A stretch of DNA of 64,000 nucleotides from positions 11,075-75,074 of the forward strand of contig CAYFYE010000002.1 of assembly GCA_964347285.1 (NCBI GenBank), given 5' to 3'. Origin of the DNA: an uncultured Acidimicrobiia bacterium (GTDB lineage: Bacteria > Actinomycetota > Acidimicrobiia > Spongiisociales > JAOTWH01). Below the pieces are notes generated by a model. The model was not told where the DNA came from. It was given only the letters and a program-made list of their open reading frames with translations, and searched no databases. The position numbers and the translations under genes were made by a program. Below, piece after piece: positions 16,589-27,233 of this stretch (its first letter is position 1; the number at the start of each line of letters is the position of its first letter).

Positions 16589-17083
16589 GTGGAGGAAGGG
16601 TTCACCGCACAGCAGGCATCGCGACTCACAGCCTGCACTGCGCATCAGCTGCGTTATTGGGACCGGGTCGGATTGATCCGGCCGAGCATCCAGAGCACCG
16701 GCGGCCGACCGGGTCGCCGTCGCTTGTACTCATTCCGCGACCTGGTCGCCTTGCGGGTGGTGAGGAGTCTCCTGGACAACGGCATGTCGGTGCAGCGAGT
16801 GCGGCGGGCCTGGGACTATTTGCGCCGCACGGCCCACATGGATGATCACCTGGCCGAGGTGAAGCTCGTCACCGACGGCCAATCCATCTTTCGGATCGCC
16901 TCAGACGAAGCCGAGCTCCTCGATGCCCTCAGAGAGGGCCAGCTCGCCTTCTTCGTTGCCATCAACGAGATCACCCAAGAGGTCGCCGAGGACGTGTCGC
17001 GTTTCGAGCTGGACCGGGATCGGTTCCTCGAGATGCTGCGCCGGGTCGAAGAGGACGTCGTCTCCGAAGCCTCCGGGTCCTAA
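16589..17083 (+). CDS. MerR-family transcriptional regulator
   Basis: N-terminal HTH (FTAQQASRLTACTAHQLRYWDRVGLIRP), strong SD GAGGAAGGG before GTG. Confidence 0.7.
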   Translation: MEEGFTAQQASRLTACTAHQLRYWDRVGLIRPSIQSTGGRPGRRRLYSFRDLVALRVVRSLLDNGMSVQRVRRAWDYLRRTAHMDDHLAEVKLVTDGQSIFRIASDEAELLDALREGQLAFFVAINEITQEVAEDVSRFELDRDRFLEMLRRVEEDVVSEASGS

Positions 17084-19452
17084 CGCTTCTTGCGCAGCAA
17101 CGACTTGAGTCGATAAGCGGCCAGGAATCTCTCGGTGGGCCCGTAGCGAGTCCTGAGCTGTTGCTCGGCCTCAGTGAACGACCGGGTCGCAGCGCGCAGT
17201 CCGCCTGAATCGAGAGGCTCTTTGCCGTAGATCGCCTCGCCGTAGTGGGCCGCCAACGGGGCCAGCGTGGGGTGGGTGGCCGCGGCGTATTCGGCCGGCG
17301 TCTGGGAGAGCTCGGGGGCTGCCCCCAGGTCGGTCAGCCGCGAGGTGATCTCTGACCAAGCCGCGGCGACATCGCCCCGGGCCAGCCGCCCCAGCCGCCT
17401 CCGCCGCCGCGCCCACTTGAACGCCGGCAACGCCAGCACCGCGATGCCGCCCAGGACTGCCACGGGCACCACCGACGTGAGCCATCCCGGCAGTCTGATG
17501 GCGATTTCCTCGTCACTCCCGCTCTGACCGACGAGCCGCAGGTTCTCCTCATCGATCAATGGGGGCGGCACGAGCGGAGAGATTGCAAAGGGGACGTTTT
17601 CCACCTCGAGAATCTCGAGATGCGGCGTGATGTCGAACGGCAGCGCACTAGCCGCGGAGGGGTTGACACCGTCGAGGCGCGGCGTGGCGTCGAAGCGGAC
17701 CCAACCCTGGGAGGGCATCCAGAACTCGACCCAGGCATGGGCATTGTTGTCTCGGACTACCACCCGGCCCTCACCGATGTCGGTGCCGGGCGTGAAGCCG
17801 AGCACGATCCGGCTGGGAATGCCCGCCGCTCGCCCCATGACCCCCAATGCTCCGGCGTACTGTTCGCAGTAGCCGGATCGCCAATCGGGGTTGGTGTCAT
17901 CGAACAGCCAGGTGCCCAGATCCTCGGCACCACCGGCGGGAGCGACCGTGGTGTCGTAGCGAAAGCCGTTGGACGGGTTGCGCAGGTAGCTCTCGAGTGC
18001 CAGGGCCTTCTCGTAGTCGGAGTCGAGGCCATTCGTGATGTCTTCGGCCAGCTCGGTGATGCGGGGATCGAGTTCTTCCGGCAGTGCCAGGAACCGGTCG
18101 CGGTCCGGGGGACCATCGCGAAGGGGCGGGGCCTCGACGAACTCGGGCGGCTCGTAGTCACCCTCTTCGATCGCCGCTTGAAAGACCCGGGTCGGCTCGC
18201 CCTCGGCGTCGACGGCCAGGGCCGCCAGATCGGGGACCGGGACCTCCGACGTTACCCGGTAGGTCATGCTCTCGAAGCTGAGGGATCCGAAGCGCAGGGA
18301 GCCGTCTCCGGCGACCCGGATTCCTCGATCGACCTGGCGGATGGAAGAGGAAACCTCCACCGGCGCGTACGCAGCCGGGAGCCAATCCATGCTCAAGCCC
18401 AGGATCGTGATCTCCTGGCCGACGGTTTCGGTCGGGCCGGCGAAGGCGTGGTCCGAATCCTCGAGCGGACCGTCGTCGTCGGGGAGTGACAGCTCGGGCC
18501 CCGAGGCGAACCACCAGGCTCCGTTGAATGTGTCCAGGGTGAGCAACCGCCAATAGAGCTCGTCGCCATCGATATTGCCTTCGGTCTGGGCGACGAACAC
18601 CGGGGTGTTGGTGGGGTTGATCAGGTCCTTCTGAACGTTGACGAACGGGTTGTAGGAAACGCTCCCGTAGAAATCGCCGGTGAGACCGCTCTGGTACCTC
18701 CACGAGACGACGCCTGTGGGCGGCACGGAGCCGCTCAAACCTGCTGTGGTGAGCAGCGCCAGTGCTCCTACGCCGGCTGCCACAGCCAGCGACCAGCCCG
18801 GCAAGGCAAACCAGTTCGCTCCCCGGGCGGCTCCCGCCAGTCTCCCCACCCCAGCGGTTCGCTCGTCGAGGGTCACCGCAGCCAGCCCGACGGCGATGAG
18901 CGCCAGGAGGCCGAGCGACCAACTCAACCGCAATCCGATCCGATCGACCGTTGCCAGATGCAGGTACAGGGCAGCCGGCGGAATCAGTGCTACGAAGGGA
19001 TGGCCCCTCTGCAGACCCCAGACGGCCAGGGCTCCGATCGCCCAGAAGACCACCATGAGCAGGACCATCAGCCCTGTGGAGGGGAGCACCGGTGCCGACC
19101 CGCTGCGGATGATGTCGGCGGCGTACCTCAGCTCGGTGGCCAGGGTCCGGGCCGTCTCCCACGTCGGGATGATGAACCAGGTAGTGGCGGGGGCGGCGAT
19201 ACGAACGACGACCAGGAGCGCCGCGGCCAGGTTCGCGGCGATGAGGAGGGGGAGCTTCTTGCGAAAAGCGAGAACGGTCCAGGTGACCGCCCCGCCGAGC
19301 AGGAGCGCCGCCACCAGGAGCAACTGCCAGGGCGCTCCCTCCACCGACGGGCGAATCAGTCGGTTCAGCCTGGCGAGGGCCAGGAGTACTCCGAGCGCGG
19401 CGGCTAGCCAGCTGAAGCGGTAGACCATGGCGCTTCGGTCACTCGGGTCCAC
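17080..19452 (-). CDS. transglutaminase-domain membrane protein (TgpA-like: DUF3488 N-term, transglutaminase core, DUF4129 C-term)
   Basis: Multi-TM N-terminus, core with GYCEQYAGALGVMGRAAGIPSRIVLGF...NNAHAWVEFW (Cys-His-Asp transglutaminase triad context); start 19452 or Met9 19428. Confidence 0.85.
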   Translation of the reverse strand: MDPSDRSAMVYRFSWLAAALGVLLALARLNRLIRPSVEGAPWQLLLVAALLLGGAVTWTVLAFRKKLPLLIAANLAAALLVVVRIAAPATTWFIIPTWETARTLATELRYAADIIRSGSAPVLPSTGLMVLLMVVFWAIGALAVWGLQRGHPFVALIPPAALYLHLATVDRIGLRLSWSLGLLALIAVGLAAVTLDERTAGVGRLAGAARGANWFALPGWSLAVAAGVGALALLTTAGLSGSVPPTGVVSWRYQSGLTGDFYGSVSYNPFVNVQKDLINPTNTPVFVAQTEGNIDGDELYWRLLTLDTFNGAWWFASGPELSLPDDDGPLEDSDHAFAGPTETVGQEITILGLSMDWLPAAYAPVEVSSSIRQVDRGIRVAGDGSLRFGSLSFESMTYRVTSEVPVPDLAALAVDAEGEPTRVFQAAIEEGDYEPPEFVEAPPLRDGPPDRDRFLALPEELDPRITELAEDITNGLDSDYEKALALESYLRNPSNGFRYDTTVAPAGGAEDLGTWLFDDTNPDWRSGYCEQYAGALGVMGRAAGIPSRIVLGFTPGTDIGEGRVVVRDNNAHAWVEFWMPSQGWVRFDATPRLDGVNPSAASALPFDITPHLEILEVENVPFAISPLVPPPLIDEENLRLVGQSGSDEEIAIRLPGWLTSVVPVAVLGGIAVLALPAFKWARRRRRLGRLARGDVAAAWSEITSRLTDLGAAPELSQTPAEYAAATHPTLAPLAAHYGEAIYGKEPLDSGGLRAATRSFTEAEQQLRTRYGPTERFLAAYRLKSLLRKKR

Positions 19453-20582
19453 GCCGCCGCCCAGCTCTCGCCGGGTTCGACGACCACGGTCGTAGCCCCA
19501 CTGCGGCGGATCATGGCCAGTGAGGCCTCGCCGGCGTCGGTCACGGCCAGGACCGTCGACCTTCCGAACGATCTGGTGAGGTTGCGGTAGCCGGCCAGGA
19601 TCGCCTCATCGGGCTCTCCCGTGAGCAGATAGAGGGCCCCCCCGCCGATATCGCCCTGACGGAGCCGGAACAGCTCTCGGCGCAAGTCCAGTTTCACCGG
19701 TTGCACCGTGGCCAGGCTGCTCATCGCAGCCAGGTAGCCGATCTGTGTCGGCGTGCTGCCGTGGGGAACGCCGCTCCACAAGTGTGGGCTGAAACCGCCT
19801 TCGTGGAGGTGGCGCACCACTGAAGCAGCGCCGCGCACCGCGTGCTCGAAGGCTTCCGGGGAGCCGTAGGAAGAGGAGCGCGGATCGAACACGATCAGCG
19901 CCCGGGACTGCCATGGGATCTCGAGCTGGCGGATCATCAGCTCGTCCCGTTTCGCCGTGCTCGGCCAGTGAACTCGACGCAGGTCGTCGCCGACCTGGTA
20001 CTCGCGGAGCGTGAAGAACTCCTCTCCTCCATAGGGCGAGTAGCTGGGCCGATTCGACTGGACGGACGGGTCTCGTCCCCGTACCTGCGGGAAGCCCTCC
20101 AGCTCTTCGACGGCGGGGAAGACGATCAAGTGATCCACCAGCCCGGCCCGGCCTCCGGCCTCGGCGAGACCGAACGGGTCACCGGCGGCAACAGTCGCCG
20201 GACCAACCTGGTAGACGCCCCGAGGGCGGCACAGCACCTCGTACCGGGCTACGAGGGGAGTATGAGCGTCGATGCGAGCGGCGGCGAACCTGGCCGTGCC
20301 CAACCCACCGACGGTGTCGTCGACGATGACGTTCCGCAGAGTCGTGGGCGAGGTGATGGTGACCTCGACGACGGCCCGGTCCCCCTCGTGGACGTTCTCG
20401 GGGGCGATGCGGCGGTGTACGTCGACTCGAGGGGATCTCATTCTGACCAGGGCGACTCCGGCGAGCGTGGCGGCTGCCAGAAAGAGAGCGGCGGCCAGCA
20501 ACTCCCTCTCCCCGAAGGCGACCCAGAGGATCACCAATGCGACGGCGGCCCCGAGGGCCGCCCATCCACGACCGCTAGGCAC
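19404..20582 (-). CDS. DUF58 domain protein (MoxR partner)
   Basis: Hallmark REYQVGDDLRRVHWPSTAKRDELMIRQLE; N-terminal TM. Confidence 0.8.
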   Translation of the reverse strand: MPSGRGWAALGAAVALVILWVAFGERELLAAALFLAAATLAGVALVRMRSPRVDVHRRIAPENVHEGDRAVVEVTITSPTTLRNVIVDDTVGGLGTARFAAARIDAHTPLVARYEVLCRPRGVYQVGPATVAAGDPFGLAEAGGRAGLVDHLIVFPAVEELEGFPQVRGRDPSVQSNRPSYSPYGGEEFFTLREYQVGDDLRRVHWPSTAKRDELMIRQLEIPWQSRALIVFDPRSSSYGSPEAFEHAVRGAASVVRHLHEGGFSPHLWSGVPHGSTPTQIGYLAAMSSLATVQPVKLDLRRELFRLRQGDIGGGALYLLTGEPDEAILAGYRNLTRSFGRSTVLAVTDAGEASLAMIRRSGATTVVVEPGESWAAAWTRVTEAPWSTASAG

Positions 20583-20591
20583 GTTTGACCC

Positions 20592-21557
20592 TCATGTCAC
20601 CGTTCCCGGTACGGGTACTCCCTGGGCGATGGCTTCGACGATCTTCTGCACCTGGACGCCGCGCATCTGCGCCTCCGGGCGCAGGATGAGCCGGTGGGAG
20701 AGGATCGGCTGCAACACGGCTTTGACATCGTCGGGAGACACGAAGTCGCGTCCCAGCGTCGCCGCCCGGGCCCGGGCCGCCCGTTGCAGAAACAGCGTGG
20801 TCCGGGGTGATGCGCCCAGCAACAAATCGGGGTCGTACCGGGTGGCCTCGGCCACGTCGACGAGGTAGCCCTTCACTGCATCGGAAACGTGTACCGACTT
20901 CACGACTTCGGTCATGACGGCCACGTCTTCAGCAGACACGACCGGCTTGAGGTCCTCGTATGTGGATCGGATGCCGTGGATGTCCAACATCTCCAGCTCT
21001 TTGGAGCGGTCCGGGTAGCCGACGATGAGGCGCATCATGAAGCGATCCAGCTGGGCCTCAGGCAGGGGATAAGTGCCTTCATGCTCGATCGGGTTCTGGG
21101 TGGCGACGACCATGAACGGCACGGGTAGGGGCCTGGTGGCAGCGTCGACCGTGACCTGGCGTTCCTCCATGGCTTCGAGGAGGGCCGACTGGGTCTTGGG
21201 GCTGGCCCGGTTGATCTCGTCGCCGAGCACGATGTTGGCAAATACCGGCCCGGCCCGGAACACGAAGTCGCCCCGCTCCCGATCCCACACCGACACTCCG
21301 GTCACGTCCGAGGGGAGAAGGTCGGGGGTGAACTGGAGGCGATGGAAGGTGCAGTCGATGGACCGGGCCAGGGATTTCGCCAGCAGGGTCTTGCCGACCC
21401 CGGGAACGTCTTCGACGAGGGCATGACCCTGGGCGAGGAGGCAAAGAGCGGTCAGTTCGATGACTTCTCGCTTGCCCTGGATGACCCGCTCGATGTTCGA
21501 CGCAATCTCATCGAAACGCTCAGCGAACCACGCTGTGCCGGGCAGGGGCGTCGTCAC
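20592..21557 (-). CDS. moxR: MoxR-family AAA+ ATPase
   Basis: Walker A GVPGVGKT, Walker B DEINRASP, 321 aa. Confidence 0.9.
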   Translation of the reverse strand: MTTPLPGTAWFAERFDEIASNIERVIQGKREVIELTALCLLAQGHALVEDVPGVGKTLLAKSLARSIDCTFHRLQFTPDLLPSDVTGVSVWDRERGDFVFRAGPVFANIVLGDEINRASPKTQSALLEAMEERQVTVDAATRPLPVPFMVVATQNPIEHEGTYPLPEAQLDRFMMRLIVGYPDRSKELEMLDIHGIRSTYEDLKPVVSAEDVAVMTEVVKSVHVSDAVKGYLVDVAEATRYDPDLLLGASPRTTLFLQRAARARAATLGRDFVSPDDVKAVLQPILSHRLILRPEAQMRGVQVQKIVEAIAQGVPVPGTVT

Positions 21558-21670
21558 CAGTTCCTCCAGGCTCGGGTGGGGACCGATGGTCAGCCTAATA
21601 GTGGCCGCTGGTTGCGCGTTCCGGCCGGTGATGGGACGGCGGGTACCATGCCGGATCCGGAAAGGGCGAG

Positions 21671-22309
21671 ATGATCGACGCCGACGAGCTCCGCGGCCAA
21701 CTCCTGAGCGTCGGGGGTGTGACCGAAGCCGAGGTGACTACTTCTGCGGATGGCGGCCTGGCCGGTATTCGCATCAGGCTCGAGGAAGGCGCAGACGGCG
21801 AGGACGTCGGCCGTCGCGTTCAAGAGATACTGGCCGGCCACAGGGTCCGGGGCCGAATGGAAGGCTCGGGACAGCAGTCGGGCCCCCCACCTCCTCCCGG
21901 GGCCCCGACGGAGACTCCGACAATTGTTGCCCTGGCCGACTTCGAGCAGGCCTCCCGGCCGGTGCCGGCCCCGGTGACGGATGCAGCGTTGGACTCGGTG
22001 ACGGTGGAAGAGTCTCCGGAAGGCCTTGTGGTTACGGCATCGGCCGTCGACGGCCGGACCGTTGTCCGCCCGGCGCGCTCGCACGACACCGGGACGGTCG
22101 AGGCGGTGGTCGCCGCTGCCGCCGAGCTGGCGGGTGGACCTCAGCCCACCCTCTCCGGATGGCACGACGCCGAGGTGGGCGGTGTGCGGGTGGTGACGGT
22201 CGTTCTGGAACTCTCCGCCGGTCGTCGGGCTGCCGGGGCCGCGGTGGTGAGTGGGGGTCTTCCTTTTGCGGTGGCCGCGGCCGTTTGGCAGGCCCTCGAT
22301 TCAGCGTGA
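21671..22309 (+). CDS. hypothetical protein
   Basis: 212 aa, D/E/A/V-rich, low Arg unlike surrounding artefact frames; no recognised domain. Confidence 0.4.
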   Translation: MIDADELRGQLLSVGGVTEAEVTTSADGGLAGIRIRLEEGADGEDVGRRVQEILAGHRVRGRMEGSGQQSGPPPPPGAPTETPTIVALADFEQASRPVPAPVTDAALDSVTVEESPEGLVVTASAVDGRTVVRPARSHDTGTVEAVVAAAAELAGGPQPTLSGWHDAEVGGVRVVTVVLELSAGRRAAGAAVVSGGLPFAVAAAVWQALDSA

Positions 22310-22819
22310 ACGCCGCCGCCGCCCCGCCTTCGTTTGGGCAGGGATGATCTCTACCGGGACCTCAGGCGGCGCCTCGCTGATCGGAAGGGGCCGGCCAGTG
22401 CCGTGAGCCACGGCGTCCAGGTACTGGCCGACTCGTGCCAGGACGTCGCGAACCAGCTGCCGGCTGCGATCGAGGGGAGGGTCCGACAGGGCCGGAACGT
22501 CATCGGGCTCGGCCGACAACACCTTGACTCGTCGCGAGCGCAGATCCCACATCATGATCTCCTGGACGATCTTGTCCGGGGAAAGGGTTTGGAGGGAGGC
22601 GATGAGCACTCCATCGACCTGACCGGCGTCGACGATGCCGACCAGCGCCTGGTACCCATCCCGGTTCAGGGCCGAACCCGGCTGACGAAGATCCTGGCAG
22701 ACCGCCACCAGTTGATGACCGCCCTCGGCAACGGCCCGCCGGACCTTTTCGGCCTGGGCGTAGGCGGTATCGGCGTCCTGCGGGCTTGGGGATTCGCGCA
22801 CGTAGCCGACCACTCGCAC
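22301..22819 (-). CDS. serine-recombinase (resolvase) catalytic-domain protein lacking a C-terminal DNA-binding domain
   Basis: GTG start; N-terminal VVGYVRESPSPQD aligns to resolvase AIYARVSTDEQ (Ser retained), central GYQALVGIVDAGQVDGVLIASLQTLS matches resolvase helix; no HTH after aa 120. Confidence 0.55.
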   Translation of the reverse strand: MRVVGYVRESPSPQDADTAYAQAEKVRRAVAEGGHQLVAVCQDLRQPGSALNRDGYQALVGIVDAGQVDGVLIASLQTLSPDKIVQEIMMWDLRSRRVKVLSAEPDDVPALSDPPLDRSRQLVRDVLARVGQYLDAVAHGTGRPLPISEAPPEVPVEIIPAQTKAGRRRRSR

Positions 22820-22938
22820 GGCTCACCTTTCCCGCTCGGCAGCACCTCCAGTTTGGTCGCCGTCACCAAAAGCGTCAACAGTTCACCCAGAGTGTCAACA
22901 CCTTTGCCGGCTCCACCACCTGGTACTCTCGCCGCCGT

Positions 22939-23439
22939 ATGGGACGTGCCCTCGTTCTCAACGCCACATACGAGCCGCTCTCGATCGTTTCGTCGCGGCG
23001 GGCGGTGGTGCTCGTGCTGCGACAGAAGGCCGATATGGTGGAACCGGGCGACGGGGACTGGCGCTCGGCCCGTATGTCGCTTCCAGTGCCGGCGGTCATC
23101 CGTCTCCGTACGTTCGTCAAGGTCCCCTACGCCCGGCGGGTGCCGCTCAACCGGAAGGCGGTGTTCGCCCGGGACAGAGGACGCTGTCAGTACTGCAGAA
23201 AGGCGGCCGAGAACCTCGACCACGTCGTGCCGCGCTCCCGGGGCGGTACCCACACCTGGGAAAACGTGGTGGCGGCGTGTCGGCGCTGCAATACCCGCAA
23301 AGGCAACCGCACCCCCTCCGAGTCCGGTCTCAGTCTTCAACGGGCTCCCACTGCGCCTCGTCGGCATGGCTGGGTCCTGGTGACCGTTGGGGGCGCTCCC
23401 CACCCCAGCTGGCAGCGCTATCTCTTCGACGGGTTCTAG
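22939..23439 (+). CDS. HNH endonuclease
   Basis: ATG 22939; C-x2-C...H-x...N...C-x2-C HNH core (RCQYCRK...LDHVVPRSRGGTHTWENVVAACRRCN). Confidence 0.8.
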   Translation: MGRALVLNATYEPLSIVSSRRAVVLVLRQKADMVEPGDGDWRSARMSLPVPAVIRLRTFVKVPYARRVPLNRKAVFARDRGRCQYCRKAAENLDHVVPRSRGGTHTWENVVAACRRCNTRKGNRTPSESGLSLQRAPTAPRRHGWVLVTVGGAPHPSWQRYLFDGF

Positions 23440-23454
23440 CGGGCCTGCCGGCTG

Positions 23455-25128
23455 CTACGTTCCGGCCTCGTCCCCGTCGGTACCGCCGGTTCCGGCCCCT
23501 TCTGTTCCTTCGGTCCCCTCTTCGGCCGGCGGCTCCTCTTCTTCGGCCGGCGGCTCCTCTTCGACTTGCGGCAAGAGACAGGTGTCGCGGGCTGCGGCCT
23601 CGTCTTCAGCCGACAACAGTTCGACCTGGCCGTCCGGGTTGGCGACGTCGCAGAACCAGGTGCCGGTAGCGCTGACGGTGATCAGCACCACCCGGGCGGG
23701 CTCCTGGACGACACCTTCGTCGTCGACGACCGGCGCCTGGCGGTCCACGCCGACCACCCCGACACCGGCACCGGCGAAGCCCTGGTTGAAGTCCACACCG
23801 CTCCACAAGGGTTGGAGGGCTGCCGCGCTCACCTGGTCGTACGTACCGACTTCGGCAACATAGTCGCCGGCCACCACCAGGGCGGTACTCAGGAGCTCTT
23901 GAGCGGCGTTGTCCGCGGCGACCGGATCCACCGGCACCAGGCCGGGCGCCACCTCGAAGGCCGGGCCCGGTCCGAAGGCATAGGGGATGGGAAAGTCGAA
24001 GTTGCCGGTATCGCAGTAGGCCGGATTGATGGCGAGTTCCCCCGGACCGCTCATTTCCAGCCATCTCTGGGTGCCGTCGGGGATGTTGAGCAGCACCCCG
24101 GCCGGAGGGTCCGCCACCGGCCCCAAGCGCCCATCGCGGGGCACCCCGAATATGAAGGCCCGCGAATAGCGGACCGAAGCGCTGTCCGGCTGGCCCGGGA
24201 CGCCCGAGGCGGGGATGGTGACGGCATCGATGGCCCACTTGAAGAGAAGCTCGGCATCGCCTGCGAACGTGTCGCTGTGCAGCCGGGCCGATGCTCCGTT
24301 GGGCCATTGCGCCACTGCGGCGACGTCCGGGTACCGGGCGCCGGGCCAGGTGGCATCGATGTCGGTGACGTTTCCGACGTCGATAGCCAGGGCAAACACT
24401 TGGGTGACGACCTCGCTATCGGGGTCACCGCACACCACGGATCCGTATTCGACGGCCCGGGCCACGAACGTTTCTCCCCAGGAGATGTCCTGACCCATGG
24501 CCACGGCCGGCACCTGCGGAGGCTCGAAGGTCTGCTCCTCGATCGGGGATTCGAGGTCGAACTCGGCCGCGGTCCCCTCCGAGCGGGCAATCAGCGTCAA
24601 GTCTCCCGAGTAGACGGTGGGGACCTGGAAGCCGACCGTCCAGCGCCCGGACAGGCCCACCGGGATGTCGATCAGCATCGAACCCGTGGTCAGGGCCTGG
24701 GTGCCCAATTCCTCCGGCAGCGGGTACTCCACTCCGGCCGCGTCGCGTACCGCCAACCGGGGGTACACGGAGGGAGATGACCCGAAGCCGTCGGCCAGAT
24801 ACGGCAAGGGCTCTGGTCCCAGGCTGCGCAGGGTGATCGCGATGCGGACGTCGGTGTAGCCGGCCCGGGTCGGCGACGGAGCCAGGAACACGTCGCCCAC
24901 GGCCAGTTCCCAGGCCTCGGCTGTGAATCGGTCGCCCCGAGTCAGGGGGACGACCTCTTCGCCGGGAGTCTCGATCTCCTCGGCCTGGACGCTCTCGGTC
25001 TGTTCCGGCTCCTCGTCCTGCGCCAGCACGCCGGGAGGGCCGATGGCAATCAGCAGCGCGGCGACGAGGGCGCAGGCAAGCGCAACGGCGAGTGTTGCCT
25101 TGCGACGGGCGACAGGGTCTTCGGGCAT
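23455..25128 (-). CDS. secreted/exported hypothetical protein with acidic repeat C-terminus
   Basis: ATG 25128 (aa 154 of ORF; upstream R/P-rich artefact); N-terminal RRKATLAVALACALVAALLIAIGPPGVLAQ signal/anchor; C-terminal EEEPPAE x2 then TEGTEG... Confidence 0.6.
   Translation of the reverse strand: MPEDPVARRKATLAVALACALVAALLIAIGPPGVLAQDEEPEQTESVQAEEIETPGEEVVPLTRGDRFTAEAWELAVGDVFLAPSPTRAGYTDVRIAITLRSLGPEPLPYLADGFGSSPSVYPRLAVRDAAGVEYPLPEELGTQALTTGSMLIDIPVGLSGRWTVGFQVPTVYSGDLTLIARSEGTAAEFDLESPIEEQTFEPPQVPAVAMGQDISWGETFVARAVEYGSVVCGDPDSEVVTQVFALAIDVGNVTDIDATWPGARYPDVAAVAQWPNGASARLHSDTFAGDAELLFKWAIDAVTIPASGVPGQPDSASVRYSRAFIFGVPRDGRLGPVADPPAGVLLNIPDGTQRWLEMSGPGELAINPAYCDTGNFDFPIPYAFGPGPAFEVAPGLVPVDPVAADNAAQELLSTALVVAGDYVAEVGTYDQVSAAALQPLWSGVDFNQGFAGAGVGVVGVDRQAPVVDDEGVVQEPARVVLITVSATGTWFCDVANPDGQVELLSAEDEAAARDTCLLPQVEEEPPAEEEEPPAEEGTEGTEGAGTGGTDGDEAGT
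23520..23561. repeat. perfect 2 x 21-nt tandem repeat (cttcggccggcggctcctctt) encoding EEEPPAE x2
   Basis: Read directly from sequence at 23520-23540 and 23541-23561. Confidence 0.8.
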
Positions 25129-25187
25129 GGTGTGTGGGTTGTGGATCGTCAGCCTAACCAAGCTTCGGCCGTCGCCACCGGACGATT

Positions 25188-25217
25188 GAGGAAAAACCTC
25201 GGCGCCTGCCACCGAGG
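25188..25217 (-). terminator. candidate rho-independent terminator downstream of usp
   Basis: On minus strand CCUCGG-UGGCAGGCG-CCGAGG hairpin followed by UUUUUCCUC. Confidence 0.4.
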
Positions 25218-25277
25218 GTCGCCTACCAAGCCATTCCGGCGACGTTGAGTGGGGATGGGCACCCACCGGGGGCCGGG

Positions 25278-25811
25278 TCAGCGGGTCGATGAACCTCGTG
25301 CCTCGAGCGGCACCAGCAGCACCGGGCAGGGGGCATGGCGCATCAGCTTGGTCCCGGTGCCCCCGATGAGGTCGGGGAAGAGGCCTCGGCCGTGGCTGCC
25401 GACGCAGACGACATCGGGTTGCAGGTCGTCGATGGTTTCCAGGATCGTAGCCGCCGCGTTCTCCCCTTCGCGCGCCTCTATGACCACGTCGAGGCCGGCC
25501 GTCCGCAAGGCGTGGCCCAGCGCTGCCGTGCGCCGATCGCGCTGGTCGTCCAGATAGCGGGAGAGGATGGCATCGTCCCCCGGCCATCTCTGGGCAGAGG
25601 CTCCACCGCTCGGAGCCTGTACGTACTCGGCGTCTCGGTCGATGGGGGGATCCACCTGCTCGCCGAAGACCTCGCGCAGCTCGGCCAAGAGAGTGCGCGG
25701 TATCTCGACCACCGTGAGGACGGTTACCGGGCTGCCACCGGCCAGGCCGGCGACGAAGGGCACGACCCTATCGGGCTCGAGTCGGCCGTCGGTGGCAATC
25801 AACACGTGCAT
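25278..25811 (-). CDS. universal stress protein (UspA family)
   Basis: ATG 25811 with GAGGAG SD; HVLIATDG...VCVGSHGRG...PCPVLLV Usp motifs. Confidence 0.75.
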   Translation of the reverse strand: MHVLIATDGRLEPDRVVPFVAGLAGGSPVTVLTVVEIPRTLLAELREVFGEQVDPPIDRDAEYVQAPSGGASAQRWPGDDAILSRYLDDQRDRRTAALGHALRTAGLDVVIEAREGENAAATILETIDDLQPDVVCVGSHGRGLFPDLIGGTGTKLMRHAPCPVLLVPLEARGSSTR

Positions 25812-26703: not shown

Positions 26704-26790
26704 TGGCGGGCGGTGGCGACATGGGCCATAAAGTGGTTGACATGGGTAACAAAATGGGGCAAAGTGGTTGATCAATGGAGGACGATGGAC
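26704..26790 (+). promoter_or_regulatory. candidate MraZ operator / dcw promoter region: nine phased (A/G)TGG(G) repeats at about 10-11 bp spacing
   Basis: TGG cores at 26704, 26714, 26722, 26734, 26743, 26755, 26765, 26776, 26786; includes repeated GTGGTTGA; immediately upstream of mraZ. Confidence 0.45.
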
Positions 26791-26801: not shown

Positions 26802-27233
26802 GTGTTTCTCGGCGAGTTCCAGCACAACCTGGACGGCAAGGGTCGCCTCGTGCTGCCCCGCAAGTTTCGTGACGCCCTGGCGGGCGGATGCGTCATCACC
26901 AAAGGCCAGGAGCGCTGCCTCTACCTGTTCCCCATGTCGCGTTGGGACGAAGAGGTGGAAAGGGTGAAGAAGCTGCCCCGCACCGACCGCAAGGCCCGCA
27001 ACTTCGCCCGTTCCTTCTTTGCCGGAGCCAGCGATCAGGTACCGGACGGGCAGGGGAGGATCGCCGTCCCCCCGGCGCTGCGCGCCTATGCGTCGTTGGA
27101 GAAAGAAATCACGGTCGTCGGCGTCGCCGAGCGGGTAGAGATCTGGTCCACGCCGAACTGGGAGCGGCTCTCCGCCGAGGCCGACGAGTACTACGCCGAT
27201 ATCGAGGAGACACTGACCGAGGAAGGAATCTGA
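26802..27233 (+). CDS. mraZ: transcriptional regulator MraZ
   Basis: GTG start; FLGEFQHNLDGKGRLVLP and second SpoVT/AbrB-like repeat DGQGRIAVP. Confidence 0.9.
   Translation: MFLGEFQHNLDGKGRLVLPRKFRDALAGGCVITKGQERCLYLFPMSRWDEEVERVKKLPRTDRKARNFARSFFAGASDQVPDGQGRIAVPPALRAYASLEKEITVVGVAERVEIWSTPNWERLSAEADEYYADIEETLTEEGI

Follow-up and report, generated by a model that had tools for sequence, protein, structure and literature searches.

A conserved stand-alone serine-recombinase domain with a degenerate catalytic site in a core locus of Acidimicrobiia

The window, the 64-kb stretch of DNA that was analysed, contains a compact locus (Table 1) in which a serine-recombinase-like protein (ResN) lies between an acidic protein (hyp212) and a basic HNH protein. 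A preliminary description of this DNA had reported a minus-strand protein that shows the resolvase N-terminal fold but lacks an HTH, converging with a short overlap on an acidic ORF and diverging from an HNH ORF, and all of these elements were recovered with the same sizes and spacings. It had also placed the genes inside an otherwise core region, and this holds: a MoxR–DUF58–TgpA operon flanks the locus on one side and mraZ, rsmH and the dcw cluster on the other. The ResN neighbourhood is upstream of mraZ, with mraZ/rsmH about 4 kb away. The GC content of ResN equals that of the window, and its GC3 is 0.78. A scan of the window against Rfam, spacer included, returned 0 structured-RNA matches. 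As reported before, there are no credible inverted repeats around the window genes; the best arms are imperfect, 12–21 nt long with 75–92% complementarity, which is chance level in DNA of 67% GC. The MAG annotation gives ResN 170 aa, but the 172-aa form is favoured because M1 and R2 are conserved in the family alignment.

Table 1. Features of the ResN locus and its surroundings (positions in the window)
Feature	Position	Strand	Basis
ResN, stand-alone, degenerate serine-recombinase catalytic domain, 172 aa, GTG start	22301..22819	-	ORF and PF00239
hyp212, acidic two-domain protein, 212 aa, pI 4.5	21671..22309	+	ORF
HNH protein, basic, 166 aa, pI 11.4, two CxxC pairs	22939..23439	+	ORF and Pfam
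ResN/hyp212 coding overlap, tail-to-tail, 9 nt	22301..22309	.	Coordinates
ResN–HNH divergent spacer, 119 bp	22820-22938		Coordinates
Predicted ResN promoter: -35 TTGACG (22873-22878), 17-nt spacer, -10 CAAACT (22850-22855)	22850..22878	-	Orthologue comparison; TSS inferred
18-nt direct repeat, two copies, 20-nt period, candidate operator	22863..22900	-	Sequence
Extended -10-like element CTGGTACTCT, 9 nt before HNH ATG	22920..22929	+	Sequence; inferred
Context operon (MoxR, DUF58 protein, TgpA-like transglutaminase), outside the feature proper	17080..21557	-	Pfam
MoxR AAA+ ATPase	20592-21557	-	Pfam AAA_3 at 1e-64
DUF58 protein	19404-20582	-	Pfam DUF58
TgpA-like transglutaminase	17080-19452	-	Pfam Transglut_core/TgpA_N

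By homology, ResN belongs to the serine-recombinase superfamily: residues 3–107 match positions 1–102 of the 145 in the Resolvase profile PF00239, above the gathering score (E = 1.1e-9, 39 bits). No second domain, HTH or any other, was detected with Pfam and NCBIfam. The resolvase and HNH assignments of the preliminary description were both confirmed by Pfam, with PF00239 in ResN and PF01844 in the HNH protein. C-terminal to the catalytic core and helix E, ResN has a linker that is disordered and a short motif in the tail, which reads EVPVEII in the window protein; residues 141–172 are without secondary structure in the AF2 model. A tail motif of the DVxVELI type occurs in at least 139 of 179 distinct family sequences. 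The basic RRRRSR tail end is found in the window protein only and is not a family trait.

ResN is not the orphan that it had been called, as there are more than 100 orthologues of the same length in fixed synteny. We found 105 homologues (clusters) of 160–226 aa, each with PF00239 only, in Acidimicrobiia-type MAGs. A ResN profile HMM searched against 1.84e9 representatives retrieved 42 clusters at E ≤ 1e-30, 40 of them of 116–191 aa, one of 221 aa and one a 90-aa fragment; the next tier consists of intact recombinases of ~240 aa. A pattern-based scan of genome contigs, which sets a lower bound and is not a phyletic profile, gave at least 106 species with ResN. The loci found come from MAGs throughout, with 0 cultured carriers identified. 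The gene order HNH/ResN/hyp212/MoxR/DUF58/TGase is common to 80 species-level genome loci, bearing out the conservation and synteny of the locus, with MoxR present in 71, DUF58 in 65 and the TGase in 58 of the 80. Orientation relative to MoxR varies by lineage, and the HNH, ResN and hyp212 side is each seen both ways. A small W/R-rich ORF also occurs in most relatives of the locus.

No full-length recombinase with an HTH was found at the orthologous loci. The only long ORF (254 aa, in L048) comes from a long-read MAG and represents a second copy with a frameshift, and a frameshift or pseudogene origin was rejected. The dN/dS of ResN is ~0.14, compared with 0.18 for MoxR, and 16 alignment columns are invariant in a sample of 32 sequences. 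The median pI of the family is 4.8. No relatives were found in IMG/VR. ResN is a vertically inherited core gene in a clade of the Acidimicrobiia and is under purifying selection. The preliminary description had raised the possibility of a universal housekeeping gene of known function; ResN is conserved within its clade but has no known function.

Six residues are crucial for catalysis by Tn3 resolvase (Y6, R8, S10, D36, R68 and R71), and mutants in R68 or R71 are strongly reduced in cleavage (PMC2794168). We surveyed the equivalent positions in the 179 distinct ResN-family sequences, with Tn3 numbering as reference. Y6, R8 and D43 (D36 in Tn3) are kept in all 179, and R53 (R45) in 174. The nucleophile position 10 is Ser in 108 (60%), Ala in 51, Thr in 13, Gly in 5 and Glu in 1, a mixture suggesting that this position is not selected as a nucleophile. 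The equivalents of R68 and R71 (positions 78 and 81) are never Arg: position 78 is T, A, V, S or I and position 81 is S, P, A, D or G, whereas 10 out of 10 active relatives have R at both. The ER of helix E (E124/R125) is lost in the family. The window protein reads Y6 V7 R8 E9 S10 and retains the D36 equivalent. Based on the loss of R68/R71 and E124/R125, and with Ser in only 60%, the family appears catalytically dead as a recombinase, and ResN is predicted to be unable to cut or rejoin DNA. Residual or altered phosphoryl chemistry may persist in the window protein, where S10, Y6, R8 and D36 are present. Catalytic R68/R71 and a DNA-binding domain, which a functional serine recombinase would have, are absent from ResN; recombination sites, terminal inverted repeats or a mobile context were not found for it, and its gene neighbourhood is constant across 80 genomes. 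The earlier view that this is not a functional transposon resolvase is upheld.

The closest relatives outside the family are actinobacterial serine recombinases of ~240 aa (for example P0197, P0201 and P0244; 70–100 bits against the ResN profile), in which PF00239 is joined to the N-terminal half of PF07508, the Recombinase domain. They share with ResN the motifs MRVVGYxR, GH..V..C.D, R-x-G, QE and, at the start of helix E, DPSR.LIR.VL. Whereas these recombinases have YxRVST, RLDRLARD, an intact helix E ER and a C-terminal DNA-binding region, in ResN position 9 is E or D, position 10 varies, LDRLARD is replaced by LxTLSxD, and helix E is followed by just a linker and a motif of 7 residues. Compared with Tn3/gamma-delta resolvase, ResN is without the C-terminal HTH, the res site, inverted repeats, R68 and R71, its S10 is not conserved, and the protein is acidic and encoded by a vertically inherited chromosomal gene. 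The best matches among solved structures are the catalytic domains of IS607-family TnpA (ISC1926, IS1535) and MJ0014 (3lhk); against 6dgc, the profile search gives an E-value of 2.3e-4 and Foldseek one of 7.5e-7. As in ResN, the catalytic domain is compact and its helix-E region is short. IS607 proteins possess a catalytic serine and, at the N-terminus, a DNA-binding domain of the MerR-like type, and they belong to transposons with tnpB (PMC6188088). ResN, in contrast, begins at beta-1 and lies outside mobile elements.

The pattern of the predicted ResN promoter has a single match in the window, compared with 0.04 expected, and its architecture recurs in 45 out of 78 orthologous upstream regions, compared with 0.03 in shuffles. 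A generic promoter/terminator scanner returned nothing for 21500–23600; it missed this promoter because the -10 is non-canonical, and only the orthologue comparison revealed it. The preliminary description had noted two GTCAACA copies 23 bp apart in the spacer, reading TGTTGAC, -35-like, on the other strand. The copies are real, but their starts (22874 and 22894) are 20 nt apart, with 13 nt between them; one of them does provide the -35. Both heptamers lie inside the 18-nt repeats, which read TGTTGACaCTcTgGGTGA (22883–22900) and TGTTGACgCTtTtGGTGA (22863–22880) on the minus strand, with 15 out of 18 positions identical when read by eye, and the -35 lies in the downstream copy. The number of heptamers by itself lacks significance: the window has 7 where 3.7 are expected, and 9 out of 100 shuffles reach 7. 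CACTC at a spacing of 20±1 nt is found in 14 orthologous loci, compared with 0.02 in shuffles; for further CACTC-type motifs in the window, 10 matches against 11.5 expected give no regulon signal. These comparisons show that ResN has its own conserved, predicted promoter of the sigma70 type, and that a direct repeat with a 20-nt period flanks or overlaps it. On the HNH side, CTGGTAnnnT (reverse complement) recurs by the HNH start in divergent orthologous spacers, and the position of the element implies an HNH mRNA that would be near-leaderless.

Two candidate repeat-binding factors were considered. The mraZ promoters of the clade carry AGTGG boxes with a period of 10–11 nt; the ResN motif reversed is (A/T)GAGTG(G/T), but its period is 20 nt and it faces the other way, and the resemblance to a MraZ site is too short to carry weight, so that MraZ is no more than an idea here. 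WhiA was rejected: the window copy contains its GACAC motif, but most orthologues read GACCAC or CCACTC instead.

The hyp212 protein has zero family matches. Its N-terminal part is an alpha-beta-beta-alpha domain, a disordered linker rich in Pro comes next, and the C-terminal part is a (beta-beta-beta-alpha)x2 domain, the fold of which is like that of the LeuA/citramalate-synthase regulatory domain. The likeness is at the level of fold only (10–13% identity), which counts against a LeuA-like reading. LeuA_dimer (PF08502) has no match in hyp212 in Pfam, and unlike LeuA, hyp212 has no enzyme fusion and has an added N-terminal domain and poly-Pro linker. At least 4 homologues were retrieved with a single-sequence query and at least 30 with a profile built from locus-derived sequences; the median pI among relatives is 4.6. 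hyp212 adjoins ResN in 74 out of 80 loci. The 66 convergent pairs have a median stop-to-stop gap of 2 nt, with 31 overlapping and 51 separated by 30 nt or less. This mostly convergent orientation is atypical for subunits of one complex and counts against a partnership. A tblastn match to hyp212 is missing in L028, L034 and L035, where the ResN–MoxR gap is ~1.1–1.3 kb; in L079 the gap is ~1 kb, and a divergent hyp212 copy may fit in each of these gaps.

The HNH protein matches PF14279 (3.2e-15) and PF01844 (1.1e-13), and its core matches 4h9d and the HNH domains of IscB/Cas9, the latter over the span CQYC...DHVVP...N...CRRCN, consistent with a predicted beta-beta-alpha-metal motif with paired CxxC zinc ligands. 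We take this type, with a length of about 165 aa, to be COG1403-like; such proteins are widespread in bacteria without ResN. Across loci the median pI is 10.5. The HNH gene adjoins ResN in 66 out of 80 loci, in either orientation. In 41 loci the two share a divergent promoter region of 100–130 bp, and four loci have hyp212, ResN and HNH all pointing the same way in an operon-like arrangement, with ~25–55 nt between ResN and HNH. The link is looser than that of hyp212, because at least six loci with room for an HNH gene have none up to 6 kb from ResN (L004, L006, L014, L033, L048 and L070); in L015 it is 4.8 kb away. The suggestion of a recombinase/nuclease module finds weak support in the adjacency, but the constant partner is hyp212. 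PADLOC gave no match for ResN or hyp212, and for HNH only generic HNH models (PtuB, PDC-M01B) at 1e-8. A defence island, toxin–antitoxin system or mobile element was rejected, given this PADLOC result, the lack of inverted repeats and of IMG/VR relatives, the syntenic core locus and the host-like GC.

The preliminary description had left open whether the gene is domesticated or a decayed remnant. A lone recombinase domain without a DNA-binding domain and with a weak Pfam score (39 bits) would suit a truncated pseudogene from a decaying mobile element. However, the length is held across 105 clusters, dN/dS is low, invariant columns persist, the promoter is conserved, synteny is fixed in 80 species-level genomes, base composition is host-like and viral contigs have no relatives. 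The pseudogene reading is effectively refuted, and domestication stands. A recombinase or invertase that is still active and borrows the DNA binding of a partner would explain the varied orientations of the small genes relative to MoxR, and the window protein does keep Y6, R8, S10 and D36. We regard this as extremely improbable: R68 and R71 are absent in 179 out of 179 sequences, equivalent Tn3 mutants cleave far less (PMC2794168), position 10 is Ala, Gly or Glu in 57 and Thr in 13, and no inverted repeats surround the window genes.

By analogy with nuclease–immunity pairs, ResN, maybe with hyp212, could be an acidic protein that regulates the very basic HNH protein or inhibits it much as an immunity protein would. 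The frequent adjacency, the opposite charges of HNH and the other two proteins, the common divergent promoter region and the four operon-like loci agree with this, but we consider it unlikely given the loci without a nearby HNH, its variable orientation relative to ResN, the wide occurrence of this HNH type in ResN-free bacteria and the absence of a PADLOC/toxin–antitoxin signature for ResN and hyp212. Resolvases and similar serine recombinases repress their own promoters at res sites, and ResN might likewise be a sequence-specific autoregulator, or another DNA-binding protein, at the 20-nt-period repeats, one of which covers the -35 of its promoter; the phosphate-binding pocket residues R8, Y6 and R45 are retained. 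Such a role is very unlikely, as site recognition by resolvases resides in the C-terminal domain that ResN is missing, ResN has neither an HTH nor another kind of DNA-binding domain, the DNA-contacting residues of the helix-E C-terminus and arm (E124, R125 and the next R) are lost, and the family is acidic.

On balance we lean, by a modest degree, towards ResN as a descendant of an actinobacterial serine recombinase that was recruited by the host and is now non-enzymatic, with hyp212 as the likeliest partner. After the host took the gene over, ResN would have kept the fold of the catalytic domain and the dimerising helix E while shedding the DNA-binding domain, R68, R71, E124/R125 and, in ~40% of members, the nucleophilic Ser. 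It would act as an acidic scaffold or regulator, probably dimeric, with the Y6/R8/D36/R45 pocket and the C-terminal DVxVELI-type peptide as putative binding surfaces; the family charge fits a role that is not DNA binding. The C-terminal fold of hyp212 resembles that of a small-molecule-binding regulatory domain, and the pair would act in the setting of the MoxR–DUF58–transglutaminase operon, the HNH gene and the dcw cluster.

A more specific and rather unlikely proposal is that ResN, hyp212 and the small W/R-rich ORF form a pseudoenzyme-based module, in which the dead recombinase domain would be a ligand- or partner-binding switch controlled via the 20-nt-period operator. The switch could, for example, sequester or license the HNH nuclease; alternatively, the LeuA-like domain could sense a small molecule and couple the signal to MoxR/transglutaminase and the cell-division neighbourhood. 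If true, this would be, within a limited literature search, the first case in which a serine recombinase was exapted for a non-catalytic role as a core gene throughout a class.

Serine recombinases derived from mobile elements and kept for host functions, such as Hin-type invertases and developmental excisases, are covered in part of a review (PMC8987985). In that part, the host-recruited cases retain catalysis and DNA binding, and exaptation of a dead serine recombinase does not appear. In contrast to these active enzymes, ResN would be a pseudoenzyme-type recruitment, adding a bacterial case of a mobile-element enzyme turned pseudoenzyme. Pipelines tag ResN genes as 'recombinase family protein' or 'DNA invertase Pin-like', and in Acidimicrobiia MAGs these labels would mislead by being read as mobile elements or phase variation, a reading that ResN as a conserved dead derivative corrects. 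The practical impact is modest pending functional assignment of ResN. In a class that has received little study, ResN, hyp212, HNH and the conserved promoter/operator are a small, tractable gene set by the cell-division cluster. The neighbouring operon has a counterpart in the actinobacterial aaa-atp(MoxR)-duf58-tgm cluster, part of the bifidobacterial PFNA cluster, with which it agrees in all three genes and in their order; the description of the PFNA cluster lists pkb2 and fn3, and genes for ResN, hyp212 or HNH are absent from it (PMC8430577). The association of ResN/hyp212 with the MoxR–DUF58–tgm operon was seen here only in Acidimicrobiia-type MAGs.

The open reading frames of ResN, the serine-recombinase catalytic-domain protein, of hyp212, the acidic protein that converges on it, and of HNH, the endonuclease gene that diverges from it, lie exactly where the preliminary description had placed them. 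The 3' ends of ResN and hyp212 overlap by 9 nt, and the divergent spacer between ResN and HNH is 119 bp long. In the Pfam search ResN matched PF00239 (Resolvase N-terminal domain, E 1.1e-9, residues 3-107, profile 1-102 of 145) and no second domain, in agreement with the earlier claim of a resolvase N-terminal domain without a DNA-binding domain. The proposed HNH identity was likewise recovered (HNH_5/HNH matches), and the search with hyp212 was without a match. The public MAG annotation puts the ResN start two codons downstream, giving 170 aa (window 22813-22819; L081:2131-2643). The GTG at 22819 is the better supported predicted start because the M1-R2 / M-R-V-V-G-Y N-terminus is conserved family-wide. 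Long open reading frames in other frames overlap the region 21460-23403 on both strands (22334-23383 +, 349 aa; 22666-23403 -, 245 aa; 21460-22347 +, 295 aa) and were rejected as the usual high-GC artefacts. The three reported frames are supported by conserved protein homologues, tblastn synteny and their computed GC3 of 0.75-0.80.

Coordinates of the three genes in the window and of W/R-rich reading frames in orthologous ResN loci
Feature	Sequence	Position	Strand	Remarks
hyp212	window	21671-22309	+	212 aa, pI 4.5, ORF call
ResN	window	22301-22819	-	172 aa, GTG start, ORF call
HNH	window	22939-23439	+	166 aa, ORF call
W/R-rich ORF	L001	2266-2511	-	upstream of hyp212
W/R-rich ORF	L014	7330-7578	-	upstream of hyp212
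W/R-rich ORF	L043	7255-7488	-	upstream of hyp212

Homology places ResN in the serine-recombinase superfamily. Olorunniji and Stark showed that Tn3 resolvase cleaves and recombines far less when any of six residues (Y6, R8, S10, D36, R68 and R71) is mutated (PMC2794168). We aligned 179 distinct ResN-family sequences with ten active relatives (Tn3 numbering in brackets). Y6, R8 and D43 (D36) are kept in 179/179 sequences and R53 (R45) in 174, and D82, Q86, E87, R120 and R124 are essentially invariant. Position 9 is E or D in all family members and V in the active enzymes. Position 10 (the S10 nucleophile) is S in 108 sequences, A in 51, T in 13, G in 5 and E in one; position 77 (D67) is variable, the ER pair of helix E is lost, and arginine occurs in none of the 179 at positions 78 and 81 (R68, R71). 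The check proposed earlier, aligning the catalytic serine and arginines, recovered Ser10 and R8 in the window protein, but R68 and R71 nowhere in the family. Since two of the six crucial residues are absent everywhere, a third is dispensable and the DNA-binding domain is missing, we predict that the family cannot act as a working recombinase. What ResN lacks of a functional serine recombinase is R68/R71, the DNA-binding domain and recombination sites; the first two bear out the earlier statement that it is not a functional transposon resolvase.

Among 5.8 billion proteins searched there were 105 strong homologues (43-63% identity), all of 160-226 aa with PF00239 alone and, where the source is named, all from Acidimicrobiia MAGs; the next match was a large serine recombinase (E 5e-4). 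At E<=1e-30, a profile search that covered 1.84 billion cluster representatives exhaustively yielded 42 clusters, 40 of them of 116-191 aa, one of 221 aa and one a 90-aa fragment. The second tier (E 1e-24 to 1e-14) is largely made up of ~240-aa proteins with YxRVST and RLDRLARD intact plus the first half of the Recombinase domain, which on sequence grounds are genuine actinobacterial serine recombinases. No ResN relatives were found in IMG/VR, PADLOC gave no match for ResN, and Rfam none within the window.

Scanning one genome per GTDB species revealed at least 106 ResN loci, of which 80 were kept and compared by tblastn with the window proteins. hyp212 adjoins ResN in 74/80 loci, and the other neighbours are MoxR (71), HNH (66), DUF58 (65) and a TgpA-like transglutaminase, TGase (58), usually in the order HNH(-) ResN(+) hyp212(-) MoxR(+) DUF58(+) TGase(+). 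In the window the dcw cluster, which opens with mraZ (26802-27233) and rsmH, begins ~4 kb downstream of the block; this proximity and the shared gene order support the earlier placement in an otherwise core region. Median pairwise dN/dS (Nei-Gojobori) is 0.14 for ResN (65 pairs), 0.21 for hyp212, 0.19 for HNH and 0.18 for MoxR. The GC content of ResN is 0.678 vs 0.675 for the window, and its GC3 0.775 vs 0.80-0.83 in neighbouring genes.

The two GTCAACA copies noted earlier in the spacer start at 22874 and 22894, 20 nt start to start rather than the 23 first given; the count in the window is not significant (7 observed vs 3.7 expected). On the ResN strand the motif reads TGTTGAC and heads two 18-nt direct repeats (TGTTGACaCTcTgGGTGA and TGTTGACgCTtTtGGTGA; 15/18 identical, 20-nt period). 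The downstream copy supplies the -35 TTGACG of the putative ResN promoter, followed after 17 nt by CAAACT, the sole such match in the 64-kb window vs 0.04 expected. The TTGAC-N17-nAnACT architecture is present in 45/78 upstream regions (77 orthologous loci and the window) vs 0.03 in shuffles, and two CACTC motifs 20+-1 nt apart in 14 loci vs 0.02, the loci being phylogenetically related and so not independent trials. The GTCAACA repeat noted earlier is therefore real, and it forms a predicted promoter and candidate operator. On the HNH strand, an extended -10-like CTGGTACTCT lies 9 nt before the ATG (window 22920-22941), with equivalents in orthologues, which suggests that the HNH transcript may be leaderless or near-leaderless; this stretch contains no Shine-Dalgarno sequence for HNH.

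Comparison of orthologues identifies hyp212 as a real, conserved gene. Its AF2 model (pLDDT 85.6) shows two domains, an N-terminal alpha-beta-beta-alpha and a C-terminal (beta-beta-beta-alpha)x2, joined by a disordered linker centred on PPPPP. The genes of ResN and hyp212 converge in 66 loci; there the stop codons are a median of 2 nt apart, and in 31 loci the genes overlap. In seven others the two share a strand, with hyp212 upstream, and in four of the seven HNH comes next after ResN on it, an arrangement that looks like an operon. Directly upstream of hyp212, on its strand, 56/80 loci carry a W/R-rich ORF of ~80 aa (RRPxLWxEAxR..WWRxxPFLPxPDxxYLxWRxxTAYG..YLxWRxRQR) without a Pfam match; the window lacks this ORF and has just 113 bp between MoxR and hyp212. 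Past a variable linker of 16-46 residues, ResN carries the C-terminal peptide DV[VIL][VI][EHQ][LI][IL] in at least 139/179 sequences (EVPVEII in the window).

We consider it very probable that ResN is a dead, exapted core gene: a host-recruited serine-recombinase domain, catalytically disabled, maintained by selection and provided with its own conserved promoter. It would act non-enzymatically, probably as a helix-E dimer, and might bind through its tail peptide and through the phosphate pocket in its remodelled form (Y6/R8/E9/D36/R45). hyp212, its constant companion, would for that reason be the likeliest partner; our confidence in these specifics of partner and scaffold is low. ResN might instead regulate or inhibit the HNH nuclease as an acidic protein, which we regard as rather unlikely. 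ResN (median pI 4.8) and hyp212 (4.6) are acidic, and HNH (10.5) is very basic; HNH often adjoins ResN, in either orientation, and was not found within 6 kb of ResN in at least six loci with room for it.

That ResN binds DNA as an autoregulator at the spacer repeats is improbable. Still less credible is an active invertase that borrows DNA binding from a partner: the orientation of the small genes does vary curiously among lineages, but no repeats support it, and no meaningful inverted repeats flank the genes in the window, in line with the preliminary description. The readings in that description of an orphan or a decayed remnant are contradicted by the 105 homologues, the fixed neighbourhood and the dN/dS of 0.14, and decay carries the least weight of all. 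Known host-recruited serine recombinases such as Hin-type invertases are still active enzymes. The passages on serine recombinases that were searched in a 2022 review of how mobile elements are recruited (PMC8987985) describe no catalytically dead example, and further, limited literature searches found none. Present annotations call the ResN family only 'recombinase family protein' or 'Pin-like DNA invertase'.

Across L001-L080, the orthologous loci, ResN and HNH each occur in both orientations relative to MoxR, in all four combinations, and hyp212 and MoxR keep their divergent arrangement. The pattern points to recurrent inversion of single genes around a recombinase-derived gene, without flanking repeats in the window. 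A frameshift or pseudogene origin of ResN was rejected, the sole over-long orthologue (L048, CAWGCJ010000023.1) being a second copy with a frameshift, from a long-read MAG. The same MAG carries L014 (CAWGCJ010000006.1), and hence two copies of the ResN-hyp212-MoxR-DUF58-TGase block; in L048 ResN is frameshifted past residue ~105 and MoxR and DUF58 are poor matches. Possible explanations for this second block are indel errors of long-read sequencing, a strain variant that was mis-binned, or a duplicate in decay.

Beyond HNH, the 3' end of a large minus-strand ORF (23455-25587) contains a perfect 21-nt tandem duplication (TCTTCGGCCGGCGGCTCCTCT x2, window 23519-23560), translated as a repeated acidic/proline segment, EEEPPAE. 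This ORF, 557-570 aa long in MAG records, is without a Pfam match and conserved in just 16/80 loci. Upstream of mraZ (+ strand), window 26719-26790 holds at least five A-N-(A/G)-(G/T)-TGG(G/T)-type boxes with a 10-11 nt period (ACATGGG, AAAGTGG, ACATGGG, AAATGGG, AAAGTGG ...), overlapping a TTGACA -35. The array looks like a classic MraZ operator, and its layout TTGACAAGTGG...AAGTGGGG...GTGGAG recurs in about 40 related loci.
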